Below, in pieces: positions 41,866 to 61,332 of a DNA stretch of 64,000 bases. The DNA comes from an uncultured delta proteobacterium (lineage in GTDB: Bacteria; Desulfobacterota; Binatia; Binatales; Binataceae). The notes below the pieces were generated by a model. That model was not told where the DNA came from, did no database searches, and saw nothing but the letters and a program-made list of their open reading frames with translations. Location of the stretch: NCBI GenBank assembly GCA_963734845.1, contig CAVTIS010000008.1:236419-300418 (forward strand), read 5' to 3'. The position numbers were made by a program, and so were the translations under genes. Each line of letters starts with the position of its first letter. Positions within the stretch are counted from its first letter, which is position 1.

Positions 41866-43176
41866 TTATTTTCCGCCGTGCCACGTGGCCATGTGATTGA
41901 CGTGGGTGTCGAGATAAAAATCGGCGCCGAAGAAGCGATCGTAAAATTCCATCTCGCAGTGCTGCGCCTGCGCATAGGCGCGCATGTAGAAACTCGGAAT
42001 GGTCGCTGGAAAACGGCCGAAGTTGTCGTAGATGTACTGCGTGACTTCGCCCATCAACTCGATGAACTCGGGGCTGTAGCGTTCCACGCGGGTCTTGACG
42101 CGGGAGTTCTCGCGGTATGGCCCGGGGCGCTCGGGGTCAAACGCCCCGTTGGGCCCAAACTTAAGATCGGCAAATTTCTGCACCGCCGCGCGCATGTCGG
42201 CGCAGTAGGGGGGACACAGCCCCTCGAAGTATTTGTCGATTCCAACCGGATTCGGCACGGCCCAGCGCGCGTCGGTGGCAAAGCGGAAGCCGAGTCCGGG
42301 AATTCCTTTGGCCGCGAACGCGCCCATCAGGCTTGGCGGATTGATCCCCGTATACATCCATCCGCCGAGCCCCATCGCCTGCATCGCGAGCACGATGTTG
42401 TGGCATATCAGCGCCAGCTCCATCGCGCCCGTCGCGAGGCAGTATTGATCGAACTCGAAAATCGAAAATCGCTTGGCGCCGTCGATCAGGCCGGAGCGCA
42501 TGAAGCGGTCGAGGTCACCGCAGACCCGGCCGTTTTGCGGATCGAATGGGGTAAAGCCCATTCCGAGATACACCGCCATCAGGTCCATCATCTGCTGCGT
42601 CAGATCGATCACCGGAACGAAGAGCGTGGTGCCCGCCTTGTTCGCGTTCCATAGATTATGCGCGCTCGTGTGCGGCGGCTGGGCGGGGACGGTGACCCGT
42701 CCGGGCGCCAGCTTGACGCAGTGCTGCTTGACGGAATCGAAAAGCGCCGCCATGTCGGCCGGCTGCTTGCCGCCGAGGATTTCCTGCGGATCGAGATCGC
42801 GAAGTTGCGTCAGGTAGGTGCCGTCGTCGTCAGTGAAGATCAGCTCGGACGCGTAAATCGCCGCGCCGCTCGGATAGGTCCGGCCGAGCAGCCGCATCGG
42901 GTAGTTGCATCCGGTGTCCGCCTCGCCGGCCGAAGTATGCTCCATCCCGGTGTTCCATCCGCTTATTCCGGCGCCGCACATCACCAGCAGCATCCGTTCC
43001 GTTTCGCTGAGTGCGACCGGTTCGTGCTGGGATTCGTAGGCCAGCGGTCCGTCGGGAATCTTCATCCCCAGGCCGAAGCGGCGCGCGCGCCGGCCGAACA
43101 TCGCGCCGAGCAATGGAAACGAGGAAAGCGCGCGGACTAGCGCTTCGGGAGTGGGAGCGGATTTTTTTTCCGCCAT
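41866..43176 (-). CDS. nitroreductase-superfamily protein, SagB-type dehydrogenase-like (436 aa)
   Basis: 'RTYPSGAAIYASEL' resembles the SagB-type 'YPSAGALYP.E' motif. 'AMELALICHNIVLAMQAMGLGGWMYTG' resembles the nitroreductase C-terminal 'ENL.LAA.ALGLG' block. Confidence 0.45.
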   Translation of the reverse strand: MAEKKSAPTPEALVRALSSFPLLGAMFGRRARRFGLGMKIPDGPLAYESQHEPVALSETERMLLVMCGAGISGWNTGMEHTSAGEADTGCNYPMRLLGRTYPSGAAIYASELIFTDDDGTYLTQLRDLDPQEILGGKQPADMAALFDSVKQHCVKLAPGRVTVPAQPPHTSAHNLWNANKAGTTLFVPVIDLTQQMMDLMAVYLGMGFTPFDPQNGRVCGDLDRFMRSGLIDGAKRFSIFEFDQYCLATGAMELALICHNIVLAMQAMGLGGWMYTGINPPSLMGAFAAKGIPGLGFRFATDARWAVPNPVGIDKYFEGLCPPYCADMRAAVQKFADLKFGPNGAFDPERPGPYRENSRVKTRVERYSPEFIELMGEVTQYIYDNFGRFPATIPSFYMRAYAQAQHCEMEFYDRFFGADFYLDTHVNHMATWHGGK

Positions 43177-45093: not shown

Positions 45094-46239
45094 TTACACA
45101 GGCCGGCGCGCGCGCGCACCGCCGGCCACAACTTCGCGATAGAGCTCGAGCGTGCGCTGTGCCATTAGCTCGGCGCCGAATTGCTCGCGCACGCGGCGGC
45201 GCGCCGCCGCACCCATCTCGGCTCGCCGTGCCGGGTCGTCGAGCAACGCGTTCAGCGCCGCCGCCAGTGCTGCCGGGTCGCCCGGCGCCACGGTCAAACC
45301 GGTCAGTCCGTCGAGCGAGACGTGGGGCACGGCGGAGTCGAGCCGCGTGTTGACCACCGGCTTCCCGCTGGCCATCGCTTCTAATTGTACAATGCCGAAT
45401 GCCTCGCTGCGCTCGACCGAGGGCAGTGCGAACACGTCGCAGGTGTGATAACACGCCTTTAAATCGACGTCATTGACGCGGCCCATCAGCGCGACCCGGT
45501 CGGCGACGCCGAGCCGCGCGGCCTCGGCCGCCAGCGTGCCGGCGAGCGGCCCGTCGCCGGCGATCAGCGCGGTTCCCCGCACCTCTTTCATCGCGCGCAC
45601 CAGGGTTTCGAAGCCCTTGTAATAGATGAGGCGGCCAACGCCGAGCACGATCCGTTCGCCGTGGCGGCGGCGCAATTCGTCGACGCGTGCGATGTCGGGA
45701 TGCTCGAAGTCGCCGGCGCGGATGCCGAAGGGAATTATGCGGCACAGATTGCGCCGCGCGCTCAGCACCGCGGAGCTTTCGATATAGGCGGTCGAACCGA
45801 CGATGATCGCGGCGCATCGCGCGAGCAGCAGCGAAAGCAGCGGCGCGAAGGCCGCTGCGGCACGGCGTTGGCGCACCACATCGCTATGCCAGGTGACGAC
45901 TAGCGGCACGCGGAGCCGGCTCATCAGGCAAGCGATCGCGGCCATCGGGTTGGGAAAGTGCAGATGGACCAGGTCAGGTCGCGCCTGGCGCATCGCGCGC
46001 GCCATCAGCGGCACGATCGGAGTCGCTTGGAGCATCAGCGGAGTTGCGAGCCGTACGAGTTCGACTCCGCCCTCGGCCGAGCGTTCGCGGCGCCAGCGAT
46101 CGCTCGCCACCAGCACCTGGACCTCTATCGACTTGCTCTGCTCTTCGCACAGGGTCTGGAGATGCGACTCCATGCCGCCGGGATGTGGCGGGTAAAACTT
46201 TCCCACGTGCAGAACTTTGAGTGGCGCGTCCCGCAGCAT
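45094..46239 (-). CDS. GT4 glycosyltransferase (start refined to the internal ATG)
   Basis: 'MLRDAPLKVLHVGKFYPPHPGGMESHL' is a typical GT4 N-terminus; '...RSEAFGIVQLEAMASGKPVV' is the E-x7-E motif. Confidence 0.8.
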   Translation of the reverse strand: MLRDAPLKVLHVGKFYPPHPGGMESHLQTLCEEQSKSIEVQVLVASDRWRRERSAEGGVELVRLATPLMLQATPIVPLMARAMRQARPDLVHLHFPNPMAAIACLMSRLRVPLVVTWHSDVVRQRRAAAAFAPLLSLLLARCAAIIVGSTAYIESSAVLSARRNLCRIIPFGIRAGDFEHPDIARVDELRRRHGERIVLGVGRLIYYKGFETLVRAMKEVRGTALIAGDGPLAGTLAAEAARLGVADRVALMGRVNDVDLKACYHTCDVFALPSVERSEAFGIVQLEAMASGKPVVNTRLDSAVPHVSLDGLTGLTVAPGDPAALAAALNALLDDPARRAEMGAAARRRVREQFGAELMAQRTLELYREVVAGGARARRPV

Positions 46240-47420
46240 TTCAGACGGCGATCTCGCGATAGACCGCTGCGCAGCGATCGGCGTATGCGGCCCAGGAAAA
46301 GTGCGAAGCCTGGCGAATCGCCGCGGCACGCACGCTCAGCCCATCGTGCAGGCTCAGCGGAACGCTCAAGCAGCATCGCAGCGAGCGCCGCACTCCATGC
46401 CGGGAGGTCGCCCACGGCGCAGTAAACCGCGGCTTCAGCGCCAACTTCGCGCAACGCCGGGATGTCGCTTGCGATCGCCGGCGTCCCGCAGGCCATCGCT
46501 TCGACGAGCGGCAGCCCGAAGCCTTCGGCCTCCGAAGGCATCAGCACCAGCGACGCGCGGCGATAGAGGGCGGCGAGCACCGCGGGCTCCAGAAACGGCA
46601 TCGTGACGATCGACCCCTCCACGCCGAGCGCCCGCGCGAGAGCCTGTTGATCGGCGGTGAACGCACCTCCCACTCTGACCAGGCGCAGGTTCGGAAATTG
46701 CGCGCGCGCGGCCGCCACGATCTGCAGCAGCACGTCGATTCGCTTGCGCGGGATGGTGCTGCCGACGTGGAGAATTTCGATGCCGCCGGGCGCGGCGGCG
46801 CCGAGCAGATGCGCGGCCACCGCGTCGACGGCTTCATTGGGGTGCGGAGAGCAGGCCGCATGCACGCCGTTGGGAATTACCACGAGCCGGCCGGGCGGGA
46901 CCAGCGCGTTGGCGACCAGCGCGTCGCGCGTGGCGAGGCTGTCGCAGCATACGCGCGCCGCCTTGTGCATGCCGGACAACATTCGCCGCGCCATCATGCG
47001 AAACGGCAGGGAGCGACGCTCGAGGCCCGATGCAATCAGGCAACGGAACGCGTCGAGGTCGTGACAGGTTACGACGATGCGCGTGCCCGCAAGTTCATGC
47101 GCGAGATGGGCGTAGCTGTGGTCCACGATGTGGAAGACGTCGAAGCCGCCGCGCAAGCGCCGCAGCGCGCGCGGATAATCGAAGAAACGGTTGAGCGCGC
47201 GATCCGCGTTGAAGCATACGGAGTCAAAGGGCGTGCGCGCGCTGTGCCAGGAGGCGGCGCGGCTCAGGCGCCGGACGAACGCGGGCTGGATGCGCGTGAC
47301 TTCCAGCGTGGCCGAATGGCGCGCCTTGAGTTCCGCGCACAACATCGCGCCGACCAGGTCCATGCTGGGCCAGCCCTCTTCGGCGTAGTCGCAGACCACG
47401 GCTAGGCGCAGACGCTGCAC
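46125..47420 (-). CDS. GT4 glycosyltransferase; its 3' end overlaps the next gene by ~115 nt and carries a suspicious Arg/Cys-rich tail
   Basis: 'MQRLRLAVVCDYAEEGWPSMDLV...' and 'MPSEAEGFGLPLVEAMACGTPAIAS' (EX7E). Confidence 0.7.
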   Translation of the reverse strand: MQRLRLAVVCDYAEEGWPSMDLVGAMLCAELKARHSATLEVTRIQPAFVRRLSRAASWHSARTPFDSVCFNADRALNRFFDYPRALRRLRGGFDVFHIVDHSYAHLAHELAGTRIVVTCHDLDAFRCLIASGLERRSLPFRMMARRMLSGMHKAARVCCDSLATRDALVANALVPPGRLVVIPNGVHAACSPHPNEAVDAVAAHLLGAAAPGGIEILHVGSTIPRKRIDVLLQIVAAARAQFPNLRLVRVGGAFTADQQALARALGVEGSIVTMPFLEPAVLAALYRRASLVLMPSEAEGFGLPLVEAMACGTPAIASDIPALREVGAEAAVYCAVGDLPAWSAALAAMLLERSAEPARWAERACRGDSPGFALFLGRIRRSLRSGLSRDRRLKCCGTRHSKFCTWESFTRHIPAAWSRISRPCAKSRASR

Positions 47421-47441
47421 AGCTTGGAGCAGGGCGGTCCT

Positions 47442-48635
47442 CTACTCACTCTGATCGCGCAAGAGGTCGGTGATGAACGCTGTCGCGCGGGCAACTTGCC
47501 GTTCGCGATCGAAGTCGCCGCCTTCGCGTGGGATTGCCGACCTCTTGGCGGCGATTTCGGCCGGCGAAAGCGTGTCGATTAGCCGCGATAGCGATTCAAT
47601 ATAGGTTCGCGTCCACGGCGACGGGCCGGGAAGCCGCCATAGCCATCCCTCATCCAGGTCGTAGGCCAAAGGAATTTGCCCGGTGACGATGGGCAGGCCG
47701 GCGGCCAGGTATTCGCTGACTTTGGTCGTATATCTGAAGCTCCCGACCCGATCGACGCTCTGAGGCAGACTCGCTATGTCCATCGCGGCTAGATACTCGG
47801 GAACCTCCTGTCGAGCGATCCGGCCGGCGAGAACGAGGCGGGAACCGAGCATCGCGCCGGCAGCGGCCGTCAACTGTGGTCTCCCGTCGCCATCACCAAC
47901 GATAAGCGCCACCGCATCCCGGCGCTTCACCAACTTGAGCGCATTGAACAGTTCGTAACCGTAGCAATAGCCGACTCTCGCATTCCATACCAAGGCGCCT
48001 ACGATTCCGATCACCAAAGCGTCAGGTGGAATGCCGAATTTGTTCCGCACCCGGGCGCGCGCCCGAAGCCGATCGTCAGGAGCAAGCGTGAACGATGACC
48101 AACCTTGAGCAGTCATCGCGCGCGGCGCGCCGAAGCTCAGCGCGCGGCCTACAAGATACGGAGTCCATCCAATGAACCCCGAAGCAAAGCGATAGAGCAT
48201 ATGCTCGTAGGCCAAAAACGCGGGCTTCAGCAGTGGAATCCGGGACGACAGGAAAGGAGCGATGGCGTCGCCGCTGCTTACTACGTAGGGGACGCGAAAT
48301 AGCAGCCGCCCGAGCAGCAGGGCGAATCCTCCCGCGATGCCGCTACCCTCCATGATAACCATTCGCGGGCGATTCTCGCGGATCGCATCGAACACACGCA
48401 GAAAGGTGGAAATTTTGGCGCTGTGATCGAAGTGAATCAGTTGGATTGGCAGATTGCGCGTCAGTTCGCGAAGACGAGCTTCGTCGCCCTCGCCCGAACC
48501 CTGAGTGGCGAAGCCGAGCAGGCTTGGCGTCGCGGCTTGGTCCGACATGGCGCTTGGGCGCGTCACCCTTTCCGTCATCTCTGCTATGCTTTGATGATCC
48601 ACCGTGGGCTGCCGATCTCTCCTGCTGTTTGACAC
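47442..48635 (-). CDS. glycosyltransferase (GT4-like GT-B fold)
   Basis: C-terminal 'LIVGDGDGRPQL...LAGRIARQEVPEYLAAMDIASLPQ...FRYTTKVSEYLAAGLPIVT' matches the GT-B C-terminal domain. Confidence 0.65.
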   Translation of the reverse strand: MSNSRRDRQPTVDHQSIAEMTERVTRPSAMSDQAATPSLLGFATQGSGEGDEARLRELTRNLPIQLIHFDHSAKISTFLRVFDAIRENRPRMVIMEGSGIAGGFALLLGRLLFRVPYVVSSGDAIAPFLSSRIPLLKPAFLAYEHMLYRFASGFIGWTPYLVGRALSFGAPRAMTAQGWSSFTLAPDDRLRARARVRNKFGIPPDALVIGIVGALVWNARVGYCYGYELFNALKLVKRRDAVALIVGDGDGRPQLTAAAGAMLGSRLVLAGRIARQEVPEYLAAMDIASLPQSVDRVGSFRYTTKVSEYLAAGLPIVTGQIPLAYDLDEGWLWRLPGPSPWTRTYIESLSRLIDTLSPAEIAAKRSAIPREGGDFDRERQVARATAFITDLLRDQSE

Positions 48636-48638
48636 GGT

Positions 48639-49967
48639 TCACAATGCCCGTGCGCGGGCGGGCGACGCGATGCCGGCGGCCTGACCAAGAATCGCCACCA
48701 AGGTTTCAAGGTGAGCGTCGAGTTCGAAGCGAAGCGCCATCTCCCGCGCGCCGCGGCTGAGCCGCGCGAGTTCGGCCGGATCGCCGACGCATTGGACGAT
48801 CGCGCGCGCCAGCCCCGCGGCGCTCGGCGGGTCGCCCGGCGCGAGATGGCCATTGATCCCGTCGCGCAGCCACTCCGGAATTCCCCCCACGGCAAACGCC
48901 GCCGCCGGCAGGCCGCGAAGTCCCGCCTCCGGACCCACCAAACCGAACGGCTCCGGCCACGTGCTTGGCACCACCAGCAGATCGGAGTCGAGCATGAGTT
49001 GCTCGACACGGGCGAAATCCAACCAACCGCTGAATTCTATATGGAGGTTCGTGTTCTCCGCCTGTATGCGCCGTGATTTTTGTTCCCATCGCGCGCGCTC
49101 GGGACCGTCGCCAACGAAGGTTACTTTAAGCGGCTGCTTGAGCGAAGCGGCGGCCGGCGCCAACGCGTCGAGCATGATCGATCCGCCCTTGAGCCGGGTC
49201 ATCCGGCCCACGTACAACAGTCGAAGCGCGCGATTTTCGCCCGCCCCCACTTGCGCAGTATTGGTCGCAGAGGATGGGGCAGCCGATAAGGGCGCGAGCG
49301 GAAGCCGCAGCGCATGCACGCGCTCGGGCGGCAAACCATGGCGCATGAATTCGGCGCGCATGTGCGCCGAGGCGGTCAGAATCGCGGCGTAACGGCTAAG
49401 CAGCGCAAGGCGGACGCTCTGTTTCTGATAGTCGCTCCACATTCGCAACGGGTTTAAACCGCCGCATCGACGGGGATAGAACTGGACCAGGCATCGCCAT
49501 CCGAAGCGCCGCGCGCATGGGCGCGGCCGCGGCGCGGAGAACATCTTGTTGTGGCTGATGCAGGTGCCGTAATAGCCGTGAGCAAATAGCACGGCAGGCG
49601 CGGTTTCGACTATTCGCGCCGCCACCGGCAGGTCATTCATCCCGTGCGCGTAAATGACGTCGGGACGCCATGCCGCGAGTGCAGCGAACGCCGCGGACAT
49701 TCCCGCTTCGGAGGTGCACCAGGAAGGCGCAGCCTGAGGTAGGCGGATTGGCTGTGCGCCAGGTGGTGAAGCCAGTTCCGAAAAAAAAGCGATCTGATGA
49801 CCCGCGGCGGCGAGCGCTGGAATTACCGCTTCGAGATAGGTTTCCGCGCCGCCGATGCACGCGTGATGCGAGTTCGCCACCGCTATTCTCATTAAGGCTC
49901 CGCAGAGCACACGAAATTTACCGCCATCGGCGTGCGCGGCGCAGCGCCCGCAGGGTCGCGGCGCCAA
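48639..49967 (-). CDS. GT4 glycosyltransferase
   Basis: 'RIAVANSHHACIGGAETYLEAVIPALAAAGHQIAF' and 'VVPSTWPEPFGLVGPEAGLRGLPAAAFAVGGIPE'. Confidence 0.8.
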   Translation of the reverse strand: MAPRPCGRCAAHADGGKFRVLCGALMRIAVANSHHACIGGAETYLEAVIPALAAAGHQIAFFSELASPPGAQPIRLPQAAPSWCTSEAGMSAAFAALAAWRPDVIYAHGMNDLPVAARIVETAPAVLFAHGYYGTCISHNKMFSAPRPRPCARRFGWRCLVQFYPRRCGGLNPLRMWSDYQKQSVRLALLSRYAAILTASAHMRAEFMRHGLPPERVHALRLPLAPLSAAPSSATNTAQVGAGENRALRLLYVGRMTRLKGGSIMLDALAPAAASLKQPLKVTFVGDGPERARWEQKSRRIQAENTNLHIEFSGWLDFARVEQLMLDSDLLVVPSTWPEPFGLVGPEAGLRGLPAAAFAVGGIPEWLRDGINGHLAPGDPPSAAGLARAIVQCVGDPAELARLSRGAREMALRFELDAHLETLVAILGQAAGIASPARARAL

Positions 49968-50898
49968 GCGTGCCCGGCAGGCTCGCGAGCGCGAACGCGA
50001 GTCCGATTTTCGGCGTCAACCCTTGCGTGGTCATCGCGTCGCGAAGATGTTTTCGAGCGTCGCGCCCGCGTCCCGCTTGCAGCAGGTACAGGGCATACGA
50101 AAGATGCGCCGCACCGCATAGTGCTTCGATCTCGCTGCGCGACCCGGCAAGTTCCGGCATGGCCATCAGCCGCGCATAGATCAGAATCATCCCGAGGCTT
50201 CCGTCCTCGTTGGCGGTCACGGTTACCGATCCACCATGGACGCGATACCGCGTCAGCCGCTCCGGAAGATAATAGCAGGCCTTACCTGTCCGGCAGGCGA
50301 GATATCCGAGCCATGGGTCCCAGGCAGCGCCAACCTCGACTGGAAAGTCCTGCCAATCGATAGCGTCGCGTCTGATTACGCTCGCCTGCGCGACGGGGAT
50401 GCTCATGTCCAGCAGACAGCGCCAGAAGGGCTGATGGACGCCAGCAGATAGAACGTCGCGATGCCAGTGGCGGGTGTTTCTTTCGGTCGCGGCCAGGTCG
50501 ATACGGCCATGCTCGTCGATTATGTAATGGTCGGAAAACGCGAGTACGACCTCGGGGTTGTCCAACAGGATCGGCACCAATCTACTGAGAAACGCCGGTT
50601 CCCATTCGTCGTCGTCGTTCAAGATCGCGATGAACTTCCCTGAAACCAGGCTGCGGAAGGCCTGGATATGGTTGGCTGCGATACGCAGTCGCTTTTCATT
50701 TCGATGATAGACAATGCGCGGATCGGCGAAGCCTCGAGCGATTTCGCGATTCGTATCGCTGCCTAGGTCGTCGGTCACGATGATTTCAACGTTGCGGTAG
50801 TCGCCGTTTACAGCACTGGCGATCGCGCTGCGCAGATAAGCAGGGCGGTTGTAAGTCGCGATCACAACGCTGACCAGCGGGGCGTCGGCGGCCGGCAT
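49918..50898 (-). CDS. GT2 glycosyltransferase (start refined to ATG at 50898; the upstream Arg-rich extension looks spurious)
   Basis: 'PLVSVVIATYNRPAYLRSAIASAVNGDYRNVEIIVTDDLGSD' is the GT-A N-terminus with a DD motif. Confidence 0.8.
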   Translation of the reverse strand: MPAADAPLVSVVIATYNRPAYLRSAIASAVNGDYRNVEIIVTDDLGSDTNREIARGFADPRIVYHRNEKRLRIAANHIQAFRSLVSGKFIAILNDDDEWEPAFLSRLVPILLDNPEVVLAFSDHYIIDEHGRIDLAATERNTRHWHRDVLSAGVHQPFWRCLLDMSIPVAQASVIRRDAIDWQDFPVEVGAAWDPWLGYLACRTGKACYYLPERLTRYRVHGGSVTVTANEDGSLGMILIYARLMAMPELAGSRSEIEALCGAAHLSYALYLLQAGRGRDARKHLRDAMTTQGLTPKIGLAFALASLPGTLGAATLRALRRARRWR

Positions 50899-52043
50899 CA
50901 GCAACCCTCGCGCAGCGCGGCGATTGTGTGCGCGACGTCGAAGCGCTCGGCGTAGAGCGCGCCGGCTGCGGCTCCCATACGTGCGCGTCGCGCGGGATCG
51001 TCCATCAGGTGCGTGAGCGTCGCACGCATCGCCGCGAGGTCGCCACTGTCCACCAGAGCCACCGCGCCGCTTTGTCGCCACAAGGGCTCGGTGAGAACGC
51101 CGTCGGTGGTCACGACCGCGCTGCGATGCGCCAGCGCAGCCATCAGGCTCGTGCGGCGCGTGCTGACGCCATCGGCGTATGGTTGCAGCATCAGATCGCA
51201 TGCGCCGAGATGGCGTGAGACGTCAGCGGGCGCGAGCGGACCTGAGGCGTGCACGCGCGAGTGCAGCTCTGGAGTTTCCTCCAGCAGCCGGCTTCGCAAG
51301 GCCGGGCTGTCGCGGCCCACAAGCATGAGCGCTGCGTCGGGGCGCTCACGCAGCAGCGGAGGTACGACGGCCGCAAGTTTATCCGCGATCCAGGTCTCGC
51401 GTGCGGTGCCGAAATTGCCAAGTATTATGCCGCCCTCGACCATCAGCGCCCTGCGGACAGCGTGAACTCCGGCCGGGTCGTCGACCACCGGCACGTTACT
51501 CGGCACCGGCAGCCATGAGATCGCAGCCCCCGCAGGCGCGAGCGCCCGCAGCCGCGGTTCCCAGGCCGCGGCGCTGACAACGCATCGGCCGGCGGCGCGC
51601 GTGAGCACGAAAGCCATCCCCAGATGGACCGCGCCAAGCGCATTGAGGCGCATCGGCTGTTGCCACCGGAGCGCCACCGAAACCTCATGAAACATGACCG
51701 TGATGCCAGCGCGGCGGCGCGCGAAGAGCCACAGGCATAGCGGGAGATTCATGCCCTTCATGCCGAATGCCTGCGGGACGTATTGCACCATTATCCGTCC
51801 CGGGCCCGTGGCGTCGAGGGCGCGGCCGAGCGCGGCGAGCGTGCGCAGGCTGAAACCGCCAGGCAGACGATGGACCTCGATGCCGGTTTCGGCCGGATCC
51901 CGCGCATCGGCTGCGGCAGGCGCCCAAACGTGAATGCGGTCGCCGTGAGCGGCGAGTCCGTGCGCGACCAGCCGAGTGTAATCGGCGACGCCGCCTTGTT
52001 GGGGCGGATACTCGCCCGTGATGATGTGCCAGGTTATTAGAAT
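50898..52043 (-). CDS. GT4 glycosyltransferase with no canonical start codon. The called ORF is 50898..51791, but the GT4 N-terminal domain continues in frame up to the upstream gene's stop
   Basis: In-frame upstream translation '(stop)TILITWHIITGEYPPQQGGVADYTRLVAHGLAAHGDRIHVWAPA...' is a classic GT4 N-terminus. A 'GAGGAGG' Shine-Dalgarno lies at 52058-52064 inside the upstream gene. Only ATT/ATA codons are available as starts between the upstream stop (52047-52049) and the first ATG (51789-51791). Confidence 0.55.
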   Translation of the reverse strand: MLITWHIITGEYPPQQGGVADYTRLVAHGLAAHGDRIHVWAPAAADARDPAETGIEVHRLPGGFSLRTLAALGRALDATGPGRIMVQYVPQAFGMKGMNLPLCLWLFARRRAGITVMFHEVSVALRWQQPMRLNALGAVHLGMAFVLTRAAGRCVVSAAAWEPRLRALAPAGAAISWLPVPSNVPVVDDPAGVHAVRRALMVEGGIILGNFGTARETWIADKLAAVVPPLLRERPDAALMLVGRDSPALRSRLLEETPELHSRVHASGPLAPADVSRHLGACDLMLQPYADGVSTRRTSLMAALAHRSAVVTTDGVLTEPLWRQSGAVALVDSGDLAAMRATLTHLMDDPARRARMGAAAGALYAERFDVAHTIAALREGC

Positions 52044-52046
52044 CGT

Positions 52047-52811
52047 CTAACTGCGGGCCTCCTCGATCGCGCGTCGTATTCTGCGCCGGACGCGAGTGCC
52101 GAGGAACTTGATTCGCCACCAAGTGTGATCTGCCTGGAGCAGCTTCTCGGGATAGGGACGCACGCGCTGTATGTATTTCTCAAGTTCCTGCGCCTGTTTC
52201 GCCGGCGTGTGGATAGTCGTCTCGGAGAACCTGAAACTGTCTTCCCAGAATAGCCACTGATTCCGCTGCGCCTCAGAAAGTTGCCGCAGGTACCGCTCGG
52301 GAAAGGAAAACCGCCAGTGGCTATGAATCATGTGATACTTCATGAGGAAGCGAATCTCGTCAGGTAGGATGATGTCGATTAGCCAACGATGGTGGGTCAG
52401 TCCCACCTGCCCAGGCTCCGCCCCGCGGCAGGACTCCGCTACGCGCGACGGAACCTCGATGTAGCCGCGCTTGCCTATCCGGATGATCTCAGCGCTTACC
52501 CAGAGCGGGTCGCGCACGTCCTCGAGGGTTTGCGAGCAGGTCACGAAATCGAAGAATTTATCAGGGAATGGATACGGCTGCTTGTCGCAGATATCGCGCT
52601 GGATCCAGGTCTCCTTAGTGAAATACTCTCGCTCGCCTCCCTGTGCTGGCGCAAGCCATCCCCTTGTCTCGTACGGCTCCGCGTCGATGACATAGTTTGC
52701 GCGATTGAAGCACCGCGCCCACCCTCCGATGTCGAGAACCAAGTCATCGGGCCCGATCATCTTCAGAACCGCGTCGACGTTAGGCTCATACATCCGGCGA
52801 TCCTCCCCCAT
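52047..52811 (-). CDS. class I SAM-dependent methyltransferase
   Basis: 'LVLDIGGWARCF' motif I-like, 'DFVTCSQTLEDV' motif II/III-like. Confidence 0.55.
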   Translation of the reverse strand: MGEDRRMYEPNVDAVLKMIGPDDLVLDIGGWARCFNRANYVIDAEPYETRGWLAPAQGGEREYFTKETWIQRDICDKQPYPFPDKFFDFVTCSQTLEDVRDPLWVSAEIIRIGKRGYIEVPSRVAESCRGAEPGQVGLTHHRWLIDIILPDEIRFLMKYHMIHSHWRFSFPERYLRQLSEAQRNQWLFWEDSFRFSETTIHTPAKQAQELEKYIQRVRPYPEKLLQADHTWWRIKFLGTRVRRRIRRAIEEARS

Positions 52812-53979
52812 AGATCGTCAAGCAGCGGCGGACAACCGATGGCCAAGTGAAGCGCTCCAGCACGCGGCGTCGCCCCGCCGCCCCCATCTCGCCAGCCACC
52901 TGCGGATGGGCGCGCAGCCAGCAGAGCCGCTCGCATAGCGCGGCCGGGTTATTGGGCGATACCACGAAGCCGGTGACCCCGTCTTCCACCACCTCGGGTA
53001 GACTGGCGACTGCGGTGCATAGTGCCGGCGCGCCACACGCCATTCCCTCGAGCAGCGTTTGTCCCAATAGCTCGGGCACCGGAGTTTCGACGCCATGGGT
53101 CGAACGATAAACGCTCGGCAGCACGATGCACATCGCGCGCCGGTAGTGTTCGACCAGCGCGGCATCATCACAGTCGGTGTGGAAGGTGACACACTTGCCG
53201 GCAGCAAGCTTGTGCAGATCTTCCAGGTATTGTTCGTCAAGCGCTGGCCCGACCACTTCGAGCCGTAACCCTGGCGGCAGGGCCTCGATTAGGTAGTTGA
53301 TTCCTTTATGAGGCAGCAAACGGCCCACGAAGAGCACGGTCTTGTCGCGCTGAATGGTGCGGTCTGGGGAGAACTTCATTGTGTCGACTCCGCCAAGGAT
53401 AACGTGTGCCCACCGCTTGCCGCGATGGCCAGCGATCGTGCGGCTGTATTCGCTGATATGGAGATGCCCGTTGTACCAGCGGTCAGTCGCGAGATAGGCG
53501 GAGATATCCCAGCCGCCGCCGCCGAGGTCGCTGACGAAGACGCGCCGGCGGCTTAGGCGGCCGAAGAGGGCTGCAAGACTGCTCGCCAGAACGTGCTGCT
53601 GATGGCAATGAATCACGTCGGCCTCGCGCAGCGCGGCGAACATCGACCACTTAAGCGGGTTGAAGCGCTGGCCGCGGACGTACCAAGGTTCGCCCAGCAC
53701 GCGGATTCGAAGCGGCCCCCTCGTTTCGTTCCGGCCATGCCGCCCAAAGCTCAGCAACGTGGTCGGGACGACTTCGGCCATGTGGCGCGCTAACTCAAGC
53801 GCATAGCGCTCGGCGCCACCTACCGTGCCATCGCTGCCGAACAGCGCCGGCACCAGGTGAAGCACCCGCGGCGCCGCCGGGTCGAGCGCGAGGCGCCGCC
53901 GATGGAGTGACACCGACATCGATGAGGCTATTTGACCACTTCGAGTTCGAAGCTCAGGAACCAGGCCGGGAACAGCCAT
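52786..53979 (-). CDS. GT4 glycosyltransferase
   Basis: 'RVLHLVPALFGSDGTVGGAERYALELARHMAE' N-terminus and 'VLPSVYRSTHGVETPVPELLGQTLLEGMACGAPALCTAVASLPEVV' EX7E region. Confidence 0.8.
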   Translation of the reverse strand: MAVPGLVPELRTRSGQIASSMSVSLHRRRLALDPAAPRVLHLVPALFGSDGTVGGAERYALELARHMAEVVPTTLLSFGRHGRNETRGPLRIRVLGEPWYVRGQRFNPLKWSMFAALREADVIHCHQQHVLASSLAALFGRLSRRRVFVSDLGGGGWDISAYLATDRWYNGHLHISEYSRTIAGHRGKRWAHVILGGVDTMKFSPDRTIQRDKTVLFVGRLLPHKGINYLIEALPPGLRLEVVGPALDEQYLEDLHKLAAGKCVTFHTDCDDAALVEHYRRAMCIVLPSVYRSTHGVETPVPELLGQTLLEGMACGAPALCTAVASLPEVVEDGVTGFVVSPNNPAALCERLCWLRAHPQVAGEMGAAGRRRVLERFTWPSVVRRCLTIYGGGSPDV

Positions 53980-54491
53980 GCCCAGCGCCGTTCATAGGCT
54001 TGCGGGTAGCGGTTGGCTATTCGCCAGATCAACTTATTGACGAGCGTAGGATGAAAAATGATTTGCGCCTGACGGCGGCGAAACCGCTTTTCACTGTAAA
54101 GAACGAAGCCATGTTCACCGGTGAAGTAGTCAAAGCTGAAATGGCTGAAGTGATGGAGGTGGGTGGGATCGATAAAGGAATTCGATGATGAAAAATGTGG
54201 CGTCGTGATCCGCACGACGGCGCCGTCCTGACAGACCCGATGAATCTCTTCCATGGTGGCCACGATATCCCTGAGGTGCTCGAGGATGTCGCCTAGCAGT
54301 ACCTCTTCAAAGTGATTGTCTGGCAGCGGCCACGGAGTCAAATTCAGATCGTGAACGAGGTCGGGACTGGTGGAAGCGCGCAGATCAACGTTAAGTGCAT
54401 CGGGCATGAGCTTGGGCCCGCTGCCAAGGTTGAGAACCTTACGATCGGCCGGTTGCACCGAATCCGAGATGCTCGGATGAACCTGCTCCAT
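53928..54491 (-). CDS. class I SAM-dependent methyltransferase (Methyltransf_11/23-like)
   Basis: 'KVLNLGSGPKLMPDALNVDL' motif I and 'FEEVLLGDILEHL' motif II. Confidence 0.65.
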   Translation of the reverse strand: MEQVHPSISDSVQPADRKVLNLGSGPKLMPDALNVDLRASTSPDLVHDLNLTPWPLPDNHFEEVLLGDILEHLRDIVATMEEIHRVCQDGAVVRITTPHFSSSNSFIDPTHLHHFSHFSFDYFTGEHGFVLYSEKRFRRRQAQIIFHPTLVNKLIWRIANRYPQAYERRWAWLFPAWFLSFELEVVK

Positions 54492-56858: not shown

Positions 56859-58031
56859 CTATCTGCAAATTAACGTCGCCGTATGGCCGTATCGCGGCGT
56901 CGTCATCAGGCCTGTGGTGGGAGTAAAGGTTTGTGTCGCGGGATCGTACAGCTCGGCGGTTGCGAATATCTGGTAACCGGTATCCAGACAAATAAGACCC
57001 GGCGCGCAGGCCCAGCCTCCGGCAATCAGCACTTTGCCGTTTGGCAGGCGGGTCGCCGTTTGGTCCACGCGCGGGACCGACATCTCGTGGGACGGCAGCG
57101 AACTGTAACGCTGGCCGAAGCCTTGACCGTAAGGGAAATAAAGGAACGCGCCGTTGGATTCATATCGGAACGCGAATCCGCCGGTGAACAGCACCCTGCC
57201 ATTCAAAAGTCGGGTCGCGGTGGTCGCGCTGGCGGCAAAGGGAAATAAGCCGTGGGTCAGGCGGAAACTATCGCTTACGGGATCGTATAAGTCGGCTGGC
57301 TGCCCGGCGAGGCCGGTGTCGCCGGCGACCAGCACTTTGCCACTGACCAGCCCGGTGGCGGTATCGTGGGCCGCGCTCATATCGCCCGCTGTGCGGGTGA
57401 AGCTCTGGGTAGCGGGATCGAACAGCTCGCCGGCTGTTCCTCCTGTCGGATCGCCGTCCACGACGAGCACTTTGCCGGTAGTCAGCAGGGTCGCATTGTG
57501 GCCCACACGAGGAACGATCATGCTGCCGGTCCTCCGGAAAAAACCTCTGCGCCAATTGTAAATTTCGGCGCTCGACAATGCCGGATTAGTCCCCGGAAGC
57601 GAAATGCCGCCGCTGATCAGAACATTTCCGCTCGGCAGCCTCGTCGCCGCGTGCCCGGCACGATCCTCATGCATGTTGGCGGCGAGCCTGAACGTCTTCG
57701 TCGCCGGGTCGAACAGCTCCGCCGAGGCCAAGGCAGAGCCGCCTGCCAAAGCGAACCCTCCGACCACAAGTACCGAACCATCGAGAAGTCGCGTCGCCGT
57801 ATGTTCGACCCGCGCATCGATCATCTCGCCTACCTGGATGAAGGTATCGGTCTTAGGGTCGTAAAGTTCAGCCGTTTGAGTCGCATCGCCGGGGTCGAAC
57901 GAGGTGACGGGGTCGAACGAGGTGACGCCGCCCGTAATTAGGACCGCCGGGTCGTTGCATTGAGCATGCAGAATAGAAGCGGCGACCGGAGCCGCCAGAA
58001 GTAACACCAGAAGTGACGCTGCGAGCTTCAT
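56859..58031 (-). CDS. secreted Kelch-repeat beta-propeller protein (start refined to the signal-peptide Met)
   Basis: Signal peptide 'MKLAASLLVLLLAAPVAASILHAQ'. Six or more Kelch-like blades: 'LLDGSVLVVGG', 'RLPSGNVLISGG', 'LLTTGKVLVVDG', 'GLVSGKVLVAGD', 'RLLNGRVLFTGG', 'RLPNGKVLIAGG'. Confidence 0.75.
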   Translation of the reverse strand: MKLAASLLVLLLAAPVAASILHAQCNDPAVLITGGVTSFDPVTSFDPGDATQTAELYDPKTDTFIQVGEMIDARVEHTATRLLDGSVLVVGGFALAGGSALASAELFDPATKTFRLAANMHEDRAGHAATRLPSGNVLISGGISLPGTNPALSSAEIYNWRRGFFRRTGSMIVPRVGHNATLLTTGKVLVVDGDPTGGTAGELFDPATQSFTRTAGDMSAAHDTATGLVSGKVLVAGDTGLAGQPADLYDPVSDSFRLTHGLFPFAASATTATRLLNGRVLFTGGFAFRYESNGAFLYFPYGQGFGQRYSSLPSHEMSVPRVDQTATRLPNGKVLIAGGWACAPGLICLDTGYQIFATAELYDPATQTFTPTTGLMTTPRYGHTATLICR

Positions 58032-58361: not shown

Positions 58362-59003
58362 ATGCAGAACCAGTTCGGCATTATTCAGATGATTCAGCAG
58401 GGCTACTATGCCACGTACCCGCTGATCCTCATCTCGATCGTTTGCCTGGCGGTCATTTTCGAGCGCCTGTGGGCGCTCCGCGGTATCGGCACCCGCGCCA
58501 CCAAAACCGCCGACGCGCTGGTCGGCCCCCTGCGCCAAGGGAAATTCAACGAGGCCCTGCAGCGCACCGAGACCGGTCATACCGCAGCCGACCGCGTCTT
58601 CCATACGGTCATCTCGGGCGCCAAGGACCTCGACCGCGCTCGGCTGGAGGAGCTTGACGAGGAGCGGCGCTTCGCCGAGTTGGTCGAACTCAAGCGCTAC
58701 ATCTGGGTGCTCGCGACCTCGGGCGCCTCGGCCCCGTTCATCGGACTGTTCGGCACCGTGGTCGGTATCCTGGTCGCGTTCCAGTCGATGGCGGTGATGG
58801 GCACCGGAGGTTTCTCGGTGGTCGCGGCCGGTATCTCGGAGGCTCTGATTTCGACCGCGCTCGGACTGGCGGTCGCGATCATCGCGGTCATTTTCTACAA
58901 CTACTTCTCGGTCAAGATCGACAACATCAACGCCGCCATCCACATCAACGCCGCCCGCCTCATCGACGCCGCACTGCAAGGGAGACAGGCCGTTGGCGGT
59001 TAG
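58362..59003 (+). CDS. exbB: MotA/TolQ/ExbB proton-channel family protein
   Basis: Three TM helices, 'LATSGASAPFIGLFGTVVGILVAF' in the conserved TM2/TM3 region. Confidence 0.9.
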   Translation: MQNQFGIIQMIQQGYYATYPLILISIVCLAVIFERLWALRGIGTRATKTADALVGPLRQGKFNEALQRTETGHTAADRVFHTVISGAKDLDRARLEELDEERRFAELVELKRYIWVLATSGASAPFIGLFGTVVGILVAFQSMAVMGTGGFSVVAAGISEALISTALGLAVAIIAVIFYNYFSVKIDNINAAIHINAARLIDAALQGRQAVGG

Positions 59004-59463
59004 CGGACCGAAAAGCAGCGGCGAGATGTTCTGGCAGATCAACATCACGCCGCTAACCGACATCTTCCTCGTCCTGCTCATCATCTTCATGGTCACCACC
59101 TCGGTCACAATCGAGGCCGCCTCCCACGTTGACCTCCCAATGGCCGAAAACACCGCGCCCGAAAACAAGGGCGTCATCGTGACCTACACCGCCCAGCACG
59201 AATTGTTCGTCAACTCCAAGGACGTGACCGAGCGCGACTTGGAATCCGCGCTGACCGACGCGCTCAACCGGGTCGATTCCAAGGTGGTGATTTTCCAGGG
59301 CGACGAGAAGGTGCTACTCGGCGACATGATCCGCATCCTGGAAATCGCCAAGCTGGCCGGCGCCCAGCAGATCGCGATCGCGGCCAAGCACGTCGCGCCG
59401 GGACAATCGCAGCGTCTTCAGACCGGCGCCGGCATCACCGGCGCGAGCACGACCGGCGGTTGA
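58993..59463 (+). CDS. exbD: ExbD/TolR biopolymer transport protein
   Basis: 'QINITPLTDIFLVLLIIFMVTTS' is the canonical ExbD N-terminal TM with conserved Asp; overlaps exbB by 11 nt. Confidence 0.9.
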   Translation: MAVSGPKSSGEMFWQINITPLTDIFLVLLIIFMVTTSVTIEAASHVDLPMAENTAPENKGVIVTYTAQHELFVNSKDVTERDLESALTDALNRVDSKVVIFQGDEKVLLGDMIRILEIAKLAGAQQIAIAAKHVAPGQSQRLQTGAGITGASTTGG

Positions 59464-59503
59464 CGCGGACGGCGCGGTCGGAACCGGAGACTGATACCAA
59501 CCG

Positions 59504-59998
59504 ATGGCGATGAGCCCTAATCAGAGCGGCGGCGTTTTCGCCGACATCAACATCACGCCGCTGACCGATATCTTCCTGGTTCTGCTCATCATTTTCATGG
59601 TGGCGACCGCGATCACGATCGAGTCCGCCGCCCACGTCGATTTACCCAAGGTTCAATCGCAGGCGACCACCGACAAGCCCAAGGGCGTCGCCGTGATGTA
59701 CACCGCCGACCATCGGATCTTCGTCAATCAGGGCGAAGTGACCGAAAAAACGCTGCCCGTGGCGCTCAAGGACGCCATCAGCAAGGATCCCGACAAGCTG
59801 GTGGTGTTCCAGGGCGACCCGGCGGTGATCCTGGCCGACATGGTCCGCATCCTCGACATCGCCAAGACGGCCGGCGCCCAGCAGATCGCGATCGCGGTCG
59901 CAAAGATGCAAGGCGGTGGCGGCGGCGCTGGGACGGATGAGCCGGCACTCCCCAGCGGACCGGTGGTGCCGCCCGAACCGTCCTCCGAAGGACCCTGA
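59504..59998 (+). CDS. exbD: ExbD/TolR biopolymer transport protein, second paralog with a Gly/Pro-rich C-terminal tail
   Basis: 'ADINITPLTDIFLVLLIIFMVATA'; tail 'KMQGGGGGAGTDEPALPSGPVVPPEPSSEGP'. Confidence 0.9.
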   Translation: MAMSPNQSGGVFADINITPLTDIFLVLLIIFMVATAITIESAAHVDLPKVQSQATTDKPKGVAVMYTADHRIFVNQGEVTEKTLPVALKDAISKDPDKLVVFQGDPAVILADMVRILDIAKTAGAQQIAIAVAKMQGGGGGAGTDEPALPSGPVVPPEPSSEGP

Positions 59999-60117
59999 CT
60001 TTAGTTGCACTGTCAGCGGGAGCACAATATTAAACGGCGCCTTGCGGCGCATAGCTGGAGCACGGGCGCCGTCTCGCGGGGGAGCAGGCACGGAGCCATA
60101 ACGATAAAGGACATCGC

Positions 60118-61332
60118 GTGACCGTCGCGGAAGAAATTGGCCTGCTCGCGGTCTCGGTAGTTGTCGTGGCGATGGTCCTGTTCTGGATCGCCACGCGCGC
60201 ACATCTGGACGAGGAAGACCCGGAGAAGGAAAAGCCCGGATTCAAACACGGCCTGCGCCAGGGCCTGCGCTTTCTGCTCGGCCCCTTCCCGCTCTCCATC
60301 GGCCTGCACGTAGTGGTCCTGCTCTTTCTGCTTTTCGCCGTGCACATGGAGACCGCCCAGAACTTCATCCCCATAAGCCTGCAGGCCGGCGGCGGTGGCG
60401 GCCAGACCAAACCTGGCGAAGACACCAACCTGCCCGAGATGCAGATGCCGGAGTTGCAGGCGCTGCCGATGGAAAGGCCCAAACAGGTCGACGCCTACGC
60501 GCGCCAGGCCGTGGTCACCGCGAATAACTACGTGCGTTCGACCAATAGCGGCATCGGAATCGGCCGCGGCGGCGGTATGGGCTCGGGCTACGGCCAGGGC
60601 ATCGGCAACGGCTTCGGCGGCTTCATCAGCGGATTGCGCCGCACCGGCCTCGACGTCGTGCTCGTCATCGATGGCACCGGCTCGATGCGCCTGGTGATCG
60701 ACGACGTCAAGAACAAGATGCGCCAGTTGATGCTGGCGATTCACCGCCTGGTGCCAACCGCACGCATCGGCGTTATCGTCTTCGGCGGGCGCGGCGAGCA
60801 GATGCAGATGCAGCCGCTGACCTCGTCAACCGGCGCGCTGATTCAGTTCCTGGGCAACATCCAGGCCCGTAACGGCGGTGAATGGCAGGAAAACACGCTC
60901 GGCGCGATCCAGATGGCGGTCGGCAGCATGGGATGGCGCTCGTACGCCAAGAAGGTAATCGTACTGGTCGGCGACACCCCGCCGTTCAAGGAGGATTTCG
61001 ACCCGGTCCTCCAGACCATTCGTCAGTTCCACGCCGAAAACGGAACCTTCAATACGGTCGACCTGACCGTCGAGGAGCACGAGCGCTTCGTCAAGCAGTG
61101 GCAGAGTTATAGTGGGCCGGTGCCGGTCAACGCGTCGTCACTGCCAGAGTTCTACCTCGAGACCCAGGCGGCGTACCAGGCGATGGCGCGGGCAGGCGGC
61201 GGCTCCTGGCGCAGTCTGACCAAGGACGAGCATATCAATCAGCAGGTGCTGATCCTGGCTTTCGGCGAAGAGTGGCACTCCGAAGTCGCCGCCTTCGGCC
61301 GCGGCATCAAATCCTCCAACGCCGACCCGTAA
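60118..61332 (+). CDS. membrane protein with a TonB-like N-terminal signal anchor (S-x3-H) fused to a Gly-rich linker and a von Willebrand factor A (VWA) domain; a non-canonical TonB-like energy transducer
   Basis: 'LLGPFPLSIGLHVVVLLFLLF' resembles the TonB anchor 'FPWPTLLSVCIHGAVVAGLLY' (conserved Ser and His four residues apart), preceded by a second hydrophobic helix. 'GLDVVLVIDGTGSM' is a MIDAS-type D-x-(S/T)-x-S VWA start. 'VIVLVGDTPP' is the VWA beta4-D motif. No TonB C-terminal domain. Fourth gene of the exbB-exbD-exbD operon. Confidence 0.65.
   Translation: MTVAEEIGLLAVSVVVVAMVLFWIATRAHLDEEDPEKEKPGFKHGLRQGLRFLLGPFPLSIGLHVVVLLFLLFAVHMETAQNFIPISLQAGGGGGQTKPGEDTNLPEMQMPELQALPMERPKQVDAYARQAVVTANNYVRSTNSGIGIGRGGGMGSGYGQGIGNGFGGFISGLRRTGLDVVLVIDGTGSMRLVIDDVKNKMRQLMLAIHRLVPTARIGVIVFGGRGEQMQMQPLTSSTGALIQFLGNIQARNGGEWQENTLGAIQMAVGSMGWRSYAKKVIVLVGDTPPFKEDFDPVLQTIRQFHAENGTFNTVDLTVEEHERFVKQWQSYSGPVPVNASSLPEFYLETQAAYQAMARAGGGSWRSLTKDEHINQQVLILAFGEEWHSEVAAFGRGIKSSNADP

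Follow-up and report, generated by a model that had tools for sequence, protein, structure and literature searches.

Organization of the operon

The stretch of DNA analyzed here (the window, 64,000 nucleotides of contig CAVTIS010000008.1, from an uncultured soil bacterium of the family Binataceae, class Binatia) carries, between positions 58362 and 61332, four head-to-tail open reading frames (ORFs) on the plus strand: an exbB/tolQ-like gene, two exbD/tolR-like genes and a gene for a 404-residue protein. Several lines of sequence evidence support the view that in this fourth protein a signal-anchor of the TonB/TolA type has been joined to a VWA domain located in the periplasm. All four ORFs were found where a preliminary description of the window had placed them, and Pfam confirmed the families it had named. 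That description had also regarded the combination as an undescribed class; however, the same architecture had already been described (Williams-Jones et al., Mol Biol Evol 2025, 42:msaf138, PMC12204202), and the window operon is a new lineage of that class, not a new class. The genes are as follows.

58362..59003, plus strand: exbB/tolQ-like stator subunit, 213 residues (Pfam PF01618 MotA_ExbB, E 1e-28)
58993..59463, plus strand: exbD/tolR-like subunit 1, 156 residues (Pfam PF02472 ExbD, E 1.1e-22)
59504..59998, plus strand: exbD/tolR-like subunit 2, 164 residues (Pfam PF02472 ExbD, E 1.1e-22)
60036..60051: GC-rich inverted repeat, GGCGCCTTGCGGCGCC-like (flagged on the minus strand in a scan for terminator-like elements)
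60118..61332, plus strand: VWA transducer gene, 404 residues (Pfam, alignment, AlphaFold2, Foldseek)

By Pfam, the first three products provide a MotA_ExbB domain and two ExbD domains with a transmembrane Asp, i.e., the gene set of a 5:2-type stator, in which the exbB/tolQ-like product is presumed to form the pentameric proton channel. The gene for ExbD subunit 1 begins with a TTG that overlaps the exbB stop codon. A direct reading of its product locates the transmembrane Asp23 within ITPLTDIFLVLL, and subunit 2 keeps the corresponding Asp22, both residues lying within 'TPLTD'. The two subunits are 59–61% identical, which indicates that subunit 2 is a recent tandem duplicate of subunit 1. When compared with NCBIfam models, the exbB/tolQ-like protein scored 113 bits for TolQ and 83 bits for ExbB, both under the equivalog cut-offs, and the motor as a whole was closer to TolQ/TolR than to ExbB/ExbD. 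Since the equivalog cut-offs of TolQ, ExbB, TolR and ExbD were all missed, we assign the motor to neither Ton nor Tol.

The second exbD gene is separated from the VWA gene by 119 nucleotides. This spacer contains the inverted repeat at 60036–60051, after which there is no plus-strand T-run; the repeat may be a processing or attenuation element. In several relatives the same two genes abut or overlap, unlike in the spaced arrangement of the window. The GTG start of the VWA gene is supported by a well-matching Shine-Dalgarno sequence, AAGGA, 6 nucleotides before it.

By Pfam, the operon is flanked upstream by a Kelch gene in divergent orientation, and the next gene downstream is that of an amino-acid permease, in convergent orientation; no tonB follows the operon, a possibility that the preliminary description had raised. 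The PADLOC models for anti-phage defence (e.g., Zorya) gave zero matches for any of the four operon proteins. Several loci of the same type as the window carry, upstream of exbB, a small ORF of 86–87 residues with no Pfam match (L001:8071-8334, L086:7832-8092), and no equivalent of it was found in the window's Kelch–exbB intergenic region.

A TonB/TolA-like anchor and the topology of the fourth protein

Residue conservation in the VWA protein was assessed on an alignment of 61 homologues, with identities down to about 53%. The N-terminal part of the protein consists of the following segments, both helices being predicted by AlphaFold2 as well.

60136..60192, plus strand: extra N-terminal helix (TM1), residues ~7-25, hydrophobic in all 61 aligned homologues
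60193..60273, plus strand: short cytoplasmic loop, Lys/Arg-rich, residues 26-52 (charge counts)
60274..60342, plus strand: TonB/TolA-type motor-docking anchor helix (TM2), residues 53-75 (alignment, hhalign)

TM2 contains the segment 'FPLSIGLHVVV' and follows the motif G55 P56 ... S60-x3-H64-x6-L71, the codons of S60 and H64 being at 60295-60297 and 60307-60309, respectively. In the alignment G55, P56, S60, H64 and V75 are invariant, and L71, at position His+7, is at least 90% conserved. An [S/A]x3H pattern is kept in 55 of 59 VWA relatives; as a background, S-x3-H occurs in just 6 of 637 (0.9%) hydrophobic 20-mers of unrelated ORFs.

To compare this helix with genuine transducer anchors, the family anchor profile was aligned by hhalign with eleven TonB/TolA N-termini. 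Nine of these came from the supplement of Williams-Jones et al. (PMC12204202), and the other two are the N-termini of E. coli TonB and TolA. The profile scored 28.8 against the TonB/TolA set, with Ser aligned on Ser and His on His. All 300 shuffled controls scored lower (150 column shuffles, maximum 15.4; 150 helix-restricted shuffles, maximum 26.2), and ExbD anchors scored 14.5. The TonB-like S-x3-H anchor proposed in the preliminary description is therefore present, invariant and better aligned to TonB/TolA than the shuffled controls are.

The additional helix ahead of the anchor, also part of that description, was recovered: TM1 is hydrophobic in every window-type homologue, and AlphaFold2 models it as a helix at residues 3-30. 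It is absent from single-ExbD relatives and from the proteins of Tichowtungia, so far as the compared sequences go a feature specific to the two-ExbD subfamily of Binataceae. It does not resemble TonB/TolA anchors, against which it scored only 9.9 by hhalign.

The topology follows from charges and from relatives. The median number of Lys/Arg residues is 0 in the N-terminal tail, 6 in the loop (residues 26-52) and 1 in the 20 residues after TM2; by the positive-inside rule, the loop is predicted to be cytoplasmic and the VWA domain periplasmic, with the N-terminus of TM1 outside. The N-in, C-out orientation of the Ser/His helix is confirmed by relatives in which a cytoplasmic FHA domain, or a weak zf-HC2 domain, takes the place of TM1 before the same helix. 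We considered TM1 as a cleavable signal peptide and rejected this, since it would invert the topology set by the FHA/zf-HC2 relatives and the charges. Likewise rejected was TM1 as a TolR-like trans-pore helix of the kind found in the second family of Williams-Jones et al., given that TM1 has no Asp and that two ExbD genes are present.

A conserved flexible linker and a periplasmic VWA domain

The remainder of the protein comprises four recognizable elements.

60361..60402, plus strand: candidate 'motor box', residues 82-95, NFIPISLQAGGGGG (alignment)
60430..60480, plus strand: Pro-containing linker motif, residues 105-121, LPEMQMPELQALPMERP (P106, P111 and P121 invariant)
60547..60648, plus strand: Gly-rich block and short helix before the VWA domain, residues 144-177, GIGIGRGGGMGSGYGQGIGNGFGGFISGLRRTG (invariant in alignment)
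60649..61287, plus strand: periplasmic VWA domain, residues 178-390, with a MIDAS-like site (Pfam, AlphaFold2, Foldseek)

The linker had been described as Gly-rich and probably disordered. It is indeed predicted to be unstructured, since the AlphaFold2 predicted local distance difference test (pLDDT) score of residues 79-166 stays under 50. Even so, it does not behave as a free spacer: three blocks, (N/E)LIxVxLQ-GGGGG, LPEMxMPE...P..RP and GIGxGRGGGxGSGYGxGxGxGFGGFIxxLR, are invariant or nearly so. On the aligned sequences, then, the linker is flexible yet conserved and has not drifted freely. Within the third block G145, G147, G149, R150, G151, G153, G155, Y158, G159 and G163 are invariant, as are F166-I170, L173, R174 and G177 ahead of the VWA domain. 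A direct reading of the composition shows Gly to be dominant, with 6 Pro in about 100 residues, which does not amount to the proline-rich spacer of the TonB family. The 404-residue protein also gave no Pfam or NCBIfam match to TonB_C (PF03544) at E up to 0.1. The reported lack of both a proline-rich rod and a TonB C-terminal domain is borne out by these results.

The candidate motor box is a strand-like, alternating NLIxVxLQ stretch located 18-25 residues past His64, in which I84 and G91-G94 are nearly or fully invariant. It resembles segments of E. coli TonB ('QPISVTMV') and TolA ('GGGGGSSIDAVMV'). The motor-box concept itself originates in Williams-Jones et al. (PMC12204202).

As for the C-terminal domain, Pfam VWA_2 matched residues 180-286 (E 1.6e-10, 42 bits vs a 27-bit cut-off), and PF00092 was above threshold too. 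AlphaFold2 gave a confident VWA fold over residues ~170-390 (pLDDT 75-90), for which Foldseek retrieved Rpn10, BatB, ITIH1, integrin I-domains and CMG2 (E ~1e-10, target TM-score ~0.7). When the family profile was searched against PDB sequences, no match was returned. The start of the domain, 'DVVLVIDGTGSM', contains D185-x-T187-x-S189 (60670-60684) and resembles a metal-ion-dependent adhesion site (MIDAS); the second Asp block, 'VLVGDTPP', contributes D286 (60973-60975). Both motifs are invariant, and the model places the first at the end of strand β1 and the second at the end of β4. Thus, Pfam, AlphaFold2 and Foldseek agree with the VWA assignment made earlier from the letters alone, with one correction: the MIDAS-type start is MIDAS-like and invariant, but it reads DxTxS, not DxSxS.

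Linkage of the VWA gene to the motor

The conservation of the four-gene architecture was examined in a set of window-type loci (80 from a metagenome scan, 8 others, and the window), in which a locus was counted only if it offered at least 2 kb of upstream sequence. An exbB-exbD-exbD array lies directly upstream of the VWA gene in 50 of 55 such loci. Four of the five loci scored as motor-less (L125, L137, L148 and L160) are true orphans, with no motor gene found on the locus.

More distant relatives (27-45% identity), obtained by scanning species-representative genomes, show two other layouts, exbB-exbD-VWA-TPR and VWA(-TPR)-exbB-exbD. Among these 57 loci, ExbB adjoins the VWA gene in 51 and ExbD in 50. 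Their records are mostly labelled Binatia, with a few Myxococcales and other groups. Generic VWA genes from the same scan had no motor neighbour, with the single exception of L080. Compared across the three layouts, the ExbB proteins share 47-53% identity with each other, but only ~31% with the second motor of the same loci and with the Tichowtungia motor. Being each other's closest relatives, these ExbBs imply that the motor has been co-inherited with the VWA gene. Synteny in three gene orders, the invariant Ser/His pair and the TonB/TolA anchor alignment together give good support for a functional tie between the fourth gene and the ExbB-ExbD-ExbD motor, as opposed to a chance neighbourhood. 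The names of homologues assign the window to Candidatus Binataceae (Binatota). The lineage is diderm, as TolC-like OEP and MlaA/MlaC/MlaD genes (outer-membrane components) occur in the flanking DNA of relatives.

Some relatives have features of their own. At one locus of the second layout (L033:6615-12883), a second divergent exbB'-exbD' pair, ~31% identical to the first, directly follows the TPR gene, and at L025, L026, L029-L031 and L035 such a pair is found a few kb further downstream of the TPR gene. No tonB or tolA follows the second pair in these layout-2 loci; spermidine-synthase-like and aminotransferase genes are found there. Five contigs with the VWA system or related VWA genes (L037, L043, L045, L032 and L067) belong to metagenome-assembled genomes (MAGs) labelled Nitrosopumilus, Acidimicrobiia, Limnocylindria, Methylomirabilota and Woesearchaeota, and for these the mis-binning of Binatia-like contigs seems more likely than a true occurrence. 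One secreted protein of 1549 residues (P0164) is built of about seven VWA domains in tandem, which belong to this subfamily and have the motifs VDVVFVLDxTGSM and GGGDxxES.

The anchor–VWA module also occurs with other N-terminal parts. In P0228, P0219, P0238, P0256 and P0266 (550-670 residues) an FHA domain precedes the SxxxH helix, and a helical-repeat-like extension follows the VWA domain. In P0092 and P0105 (L160:4450-5907 and L148:5284-7122) a zf-HC2-like domain replaces TM1, whereas the SxxxH helix and the VWA head are kept, and no motor is nearby. The ORF directly before the L160 paralogue has weak ECF sigma-factor matches (Sigma70_r4_2, E 2.9e-5); judging from these domains, the L160/L148 paralogue may be an anti-sigma factor with a TonB-like anchor.

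Kelch and TPR neighbours

56859..58031, minus strand: secreted Kelch β-propeller, 390 residues from Met54 of its ORF (Pfam Kelch families), divergent from exbB

The secreted Kelch gene noted earlier on the opposite strand was confirmed by Pfam. Its likely start is Met54 (58031), from which the product has a signal peptide and no lipobox. Of the related loci, 62 extend far enough downstream to be scored; in 11 of them a Kelch gene follows the VWA gene on the same strand, and most of these operon-linked Kelch proteins begin with a signal peptide and a lipobox Cys. The only Kelch ORFs in about 1.9 Mb of locus sequence are the operon-linked ones and the divergent copy of the window. The divergent arrangement recurs in the contig of a Kelch orthologue 97% identical to the window's; in contrast to this, L171 encodes a Kelch protein of only 52% identity that has no motor beside it. 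These associations are suggestive, and they make the Kelch β-propeller the best candidate partner or target of the VWA transducer, though an unproven one. A β-propeller-like gene upstream of L087 was compared as a possible Kelch counterpart and proved unrelated.

A second recurrent neighbour, identified by clustering of neighbouring genes, is a secreted TPR protein of ~700-1000 residues, encoded beside the VWA/motor genes in 40 of 57 paralogous Binatia loci (e.g., L006:9142-11532 and L039:4712-6820). It mirrors the TPR gene of published operons from the Planctomycetes–Verrucomicrobia–Chlamydiae (PVC) group, but is located downstream instead of upstream. Within the window, a protein with 17 Sel1 repeats (10247-12424) is encoded 48 kb away and was not counted as a component of the system.

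Comparison with published VWA transducers

Williams-Jones et al. describe TolA/TonB-like vWA force transducers encoded beside tolQ and paired tolR genes. These proteins begin with an SHLS helix, which is followed by a disordered linker containing a motor box, and they end in a vWA domain; in AlphaFold 3 models, the transducer helix docks at the TonB/TolA site via the conserved His (PMC12204202). A co-occurring TPR gene is frequent in the PVC group, while not strictly defining the class (PMC12204202). Binatota are not listed in that paper, whereas 'Proteobacteria' are (PMC12204202), a label still found on some Binatia MAGs, so that some overlap with the published set is possible.

The seed locus of the Tichowtungia aerotolerans family has the order TPR, a gene for a 262-residue protein, ExbB, ExbD, ExbD, VWA, VWA. 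The window shares with this family the Ser/His helix, the linker and the C-terminal VWA fold, and in both cases the VWA gene follows a tolQ-like and two tolR-like genes. Two tandem VWA genes, as in Tichowtungia, are also seen at some Binataceae loci (L001, L002). Two Tichowtungia proteins have their parts in the same order as the window protein, with an 'ISIGIH' anchor first, then a Gly-rich segment, then the start of the VWA domain, and a Gly-rich, FFG, basic segment precedes strand β1 on both sides.

At the sequence level, however, the two groups are far apart. Against the Tichowtungia seed, the window protein gave a BLASTP E of 0.008 and an hhalign probability of 6% versus the single sequence, neither of them significant; a profile-profile comparison with the seed family reached 95% probability over 120 columns, but covered just the generic N-terminal half of the VWA domain. 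All seed homologues with source names came from Kiritimatiellales or close relatives, and none had a precomputed Pfam VWA match. The seed consensus 'VFIVDASKxM' keeps DxSxS only in part, whereas D-x-T-x-S...D is invariant in Binataceae. The Binataceae type further differs from Tichowtungia by the extra TM1, the lack of an adjacent TPR gene and the recently duplicated ExbDs (61% identical, vs 29% for the Tichowtungia pair).

The second published family, TPH-vWA (PMC12204202), resembles the window in placing a VWA head on a TolQ-like motor. Its helix, however, replaces TolR/ExbD and carries the proton-binding Asp, without SHLS, whereas the window has two ExbD genes, the Ser/His pair in TM2 and an Asp in neither helix.

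Comparison with Ton, Tol-Pal, Agl-Glt and Bat systems

The Ton system is approached in several respects: the stator genes are of the 5:2 type, the transducer gene occupies the place of tonB in an exbB-exbD-exbD-tonB type operon, and the S-x3-H-x6-L anchor is followed by a strand-like motif. The differences are in the rest of the protein, which lacks TonB_C and has a Gly-rich linker instead of a Pro-rich rod; as we propose, the VWA head would bind via its metal site and not by β-strand addition to a TonB box. Pfam found neither a canonical TonB nor a TonB-dependent receptor in the 25 window genes surveyed, which do not include the smaller ORFs of the first 37 kb.

Similarity to Tol-Pal is seen in the motor, the window ExbB being nearer to the TolQ model, and in the anchor motif, which is common to both systems. 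E. coli TolA also has a GGGGG run near the motor box, like the window protein. The secreted β-propeller beside the operon (a lipoprotein in sister loci) is reminiscent of the TolB β-propeller and the Pal lipoprotein. The window propeller, on the other hand, is of the Kelch type and not of the TolB type, and the transducer has no TolA C-terminal domain (domain III). No tolB, pal, cpoB or ybgC was present among the genes examined beside the operon.

In the Agl-Glt machinery of Myxococcus, which spans the envelope, a motor of the TolQR type and TonB-like transducers (Glt proteins) operate together with a VWA/MIDAS protein, the adhesin CglB (PMC9946355, PMC11761067). There, however, CglB is a separate outer-membrane lipoprotein and the transducers have TonB_C-like domains, whereas the VWA domain of the window is fused to the inner-membrane anchor.

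BatA and BatB are membrane-anchored VWA proteins facing the periplasm, and two structures of this type (3ibs and 4jdu) are among the best Foldseek matches. BatC is the TPR protein of the Bat operon, and TPR proteins are encoded beside the paralogous Binatia systems as well. Bat proteins, on the other hand, are not known to have an SxxxH anchor or motor synteny. The NCBIfam models for BatA/BatB gave about 15 bits with the VWA transducer, against cut-offs of 350-380 bits, and no MoxR or DUF58 gene was found in the operon flanks examined.

Proposed mechanism and alternatives

The gene content, the domain folds, the conservation of the anchor and of the MIDAS-like site, the topology and the motor–VWA synteny in three gene orders are established by the data above. 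The explanation that we favour, with a probability of roughly 0.65, is that the operon encodes its own motor, driven by the proton-motive force, together with a force transducer other than TonB. By analogy with the families concerned, ExbB would be the pentameric proton channel, with the two recently duplicated ExbD paralogues as a dimer inside. The 404-residue protein would dock on the outside of the ExbB ring through TM2, where Ser60 and His64 would act as Ser16/His20 do in TonB and Ser18/His22 in TolA. The strand-like NLIxVxLQ-GGGGG segment after the helix might then bind the periplasmic domains of ExbD as a motor box, and the flexible, conserved linker of ~90 residues could carry the VWA head across the periplasm. 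There the MIDAS-like site (D185, T187, S189 and D286), presumably with a bound metal, would hold on to a partner located in the outer membrane or close to it, by way of an acidic residue of that partner, and rotation of the motor would pull on the clamped partner, converting proton flow into pulling. The likeliest class of partner would be the Kelch β-propeller, an in-operon lipoprotein in the sister clade and a divergently encoded secreted protein in the window. The MIDAS domain of Mdn1 is reported to form catch bonds (PMC8837202), and for this reason a MIDAS head seems a sensible replacement for the strand-addition domain of TonB.

A number of observations weigh against this explanation. Motor-linked vWA transducers have been described by computation only, with no function or phenotype reported (PMC12204202). 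The fourth position of the SHLS motif is Val75 in TM2 and not Ser. The AlphaFold2 monomer shows coil and no strand at the candidate motor box, in a linker of low pLDDT. The canonical MIDAS Thr is not clearly identifiable, 'GGEW' being present in place of 'GGT'. With regard to partners, a Kelch gene is confined to a minority of loci (operon-linked in the 11 of 62). The window's Kelch gene is missing at loci where the VWA protein shares 88-95% identity with that of the window, and its product is only about 35% identical to the operon-linked ones. A homologue of the TPR protein (800 residues) was found neither in the window (tblastn) nor adjoining the VWA gene in L001-L004.

The alternative that survives best, which we nonetheless consider unlikely, is a trans-envelope signalling device. 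Here the VWA head would sense a ligand in the periplasm or at the outer membrane, and the motor-docked helix would relay its state to the cytoplasm or be gated by the proton-motive force, in analogy with TonB-dependent surface signalling and anti-sigma factors. Such a role would suit the paralogues in which the SxxxH helix and VWA head are joined to a cytoplasmic FHA domain (P0228, E 1.4e-14, and P0219). P0092 has a weak zf-HC2 anti-sigma-type domain (20.5 bits vs a 22.2-bit cut-off), and the zf-HC2-type gene of L160 lies directly after a weak ECF (extracytoplasmic function) sigma-factor match, with no motor nearby. Yet these sigma and zf-HC2 matches are under the Pfam thresholds, the window protein itself has a cytoplasmic loop of only 26 residues with no output domain, and neither the operon nor the DNA immediately flanking it contains a regulator gene.

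Very unlikely, too, appears a machine for gliding motility or surface adhesion, in which the motor would move a VWA adhesin-like head coupled to outer-membrane or surface components. Gliding or adhesion has been suggested for the class by Williams-Jones et al. (PMC12204202), the CglB protein of the Myxococcus Agl-Glt system is a precedent for a VWA adhesin with a TolQR-like motor (PMC9946355), and some of the distant relatives are on contigs labelled Myxococcales. However, no glt/agl-like, secretin or other gliding genes occur among the genes examined around the operon. Moreover, a VWA domain tethered to the inner membrane by a linker of ~100 residues cannot reach the cell surface alone.

About equally improbable is that the VWA protein sits passively in the inner membrane, like BatA/BatB, or statically tethers the envelope, next to a motor that serves a transducer encoded elsewhere (e.g., TonB/TolA). 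The presence of BatB (3ibs) and of a Bacteroides aerotolerance membrane protein (4jdu) among the top Foldseek matches agrees with this idea, as does the existence of the orphan VWA copies, and a canonical tonB could lie in the genome outside the window. A passive anchor, though, would leave unexplained both the invariant mid-membrane His and the TonB/TolA-like register; the motor clade co-varies with the VWA clade, and the BatA/BatB scores and the missing MoxR/DUF58 neighbours point the same way. Finally, chance adjacency of an unrelated VWA gene to exbB-exbD-exbD, for which nothing speaks but the 119-nucleotide gap and hairpin, is effectively refuted by the synteny, which persists at identities as low as 52% and covers more than 100 loci with three different gene orders. 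The 'decoy' role listed among the possible functions in the preliminary description found no support.

Other features of the window

The first part of the window (1-24000) has a G+C content of 0.53-0.57, vs 0.60-0.67 elsewhere, and encodes, besides the protein with 17 Sel1 repeats (725 residues), a 724-residue protein in which GT4 and GT2 glycosyltransferases are fused (18057-20231); this part may represent a surface-polysaccharide region gained by horizontal transfer. Upstream of the operon, on the minus strand (46125-54491), there are four GT4 and GT2 glycosyltransferases and two methyltransferases. A GH15 glucoamylase/trehalase-like gene is found at 43258-45072. Strong coding potential, seen as a high third-position G+C, marks the minus-strand ORF at 41866-43176 (436 residues), for which Pfam has no match at E ≤0.001. 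A family III CoA-transferase is encoded at 38504-39718, and two amidase (PF01425) paralogues (24594-26006 and 34256-35701) lie 8 kb apart.

Implications

TonB and TolA were for a long time the sole known monomeric transducers of proton-motive energy from the inner to the outer membrane, and VWA-tipped transducers were proposed only in 2025. The Binatia family opens no new category, but it adds hundreds of well-conserved homologues from soil metagenomes, in three operon layouts, and gives testable handles on the function of the class: a conserved MIDAS-like site open to mutation, and a Kelch lipoprotein as a concrete candidate partner. The anti-sigma-like and FHA-linked paralogues hint at signalling. 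A bolder proposal, which we regard as doubtful, is that Binatia possess a third proton-driven envelope machine, apart from Ton and Tol-Pal, whose transducer would grip an outer-membrane Kelch (lipo)protein by a force-bearing MIDAS bond. Its anchor–VWA module would have been rewired to FHA and ECF-sigma/anti-sigma partners in the paralogues, and the whole would be independent of the Kiritimatiellales family or diverged from it beyond recognition. If that were true, motor-gated VWA heads would be a general module for pulling and signalling across the envelope.

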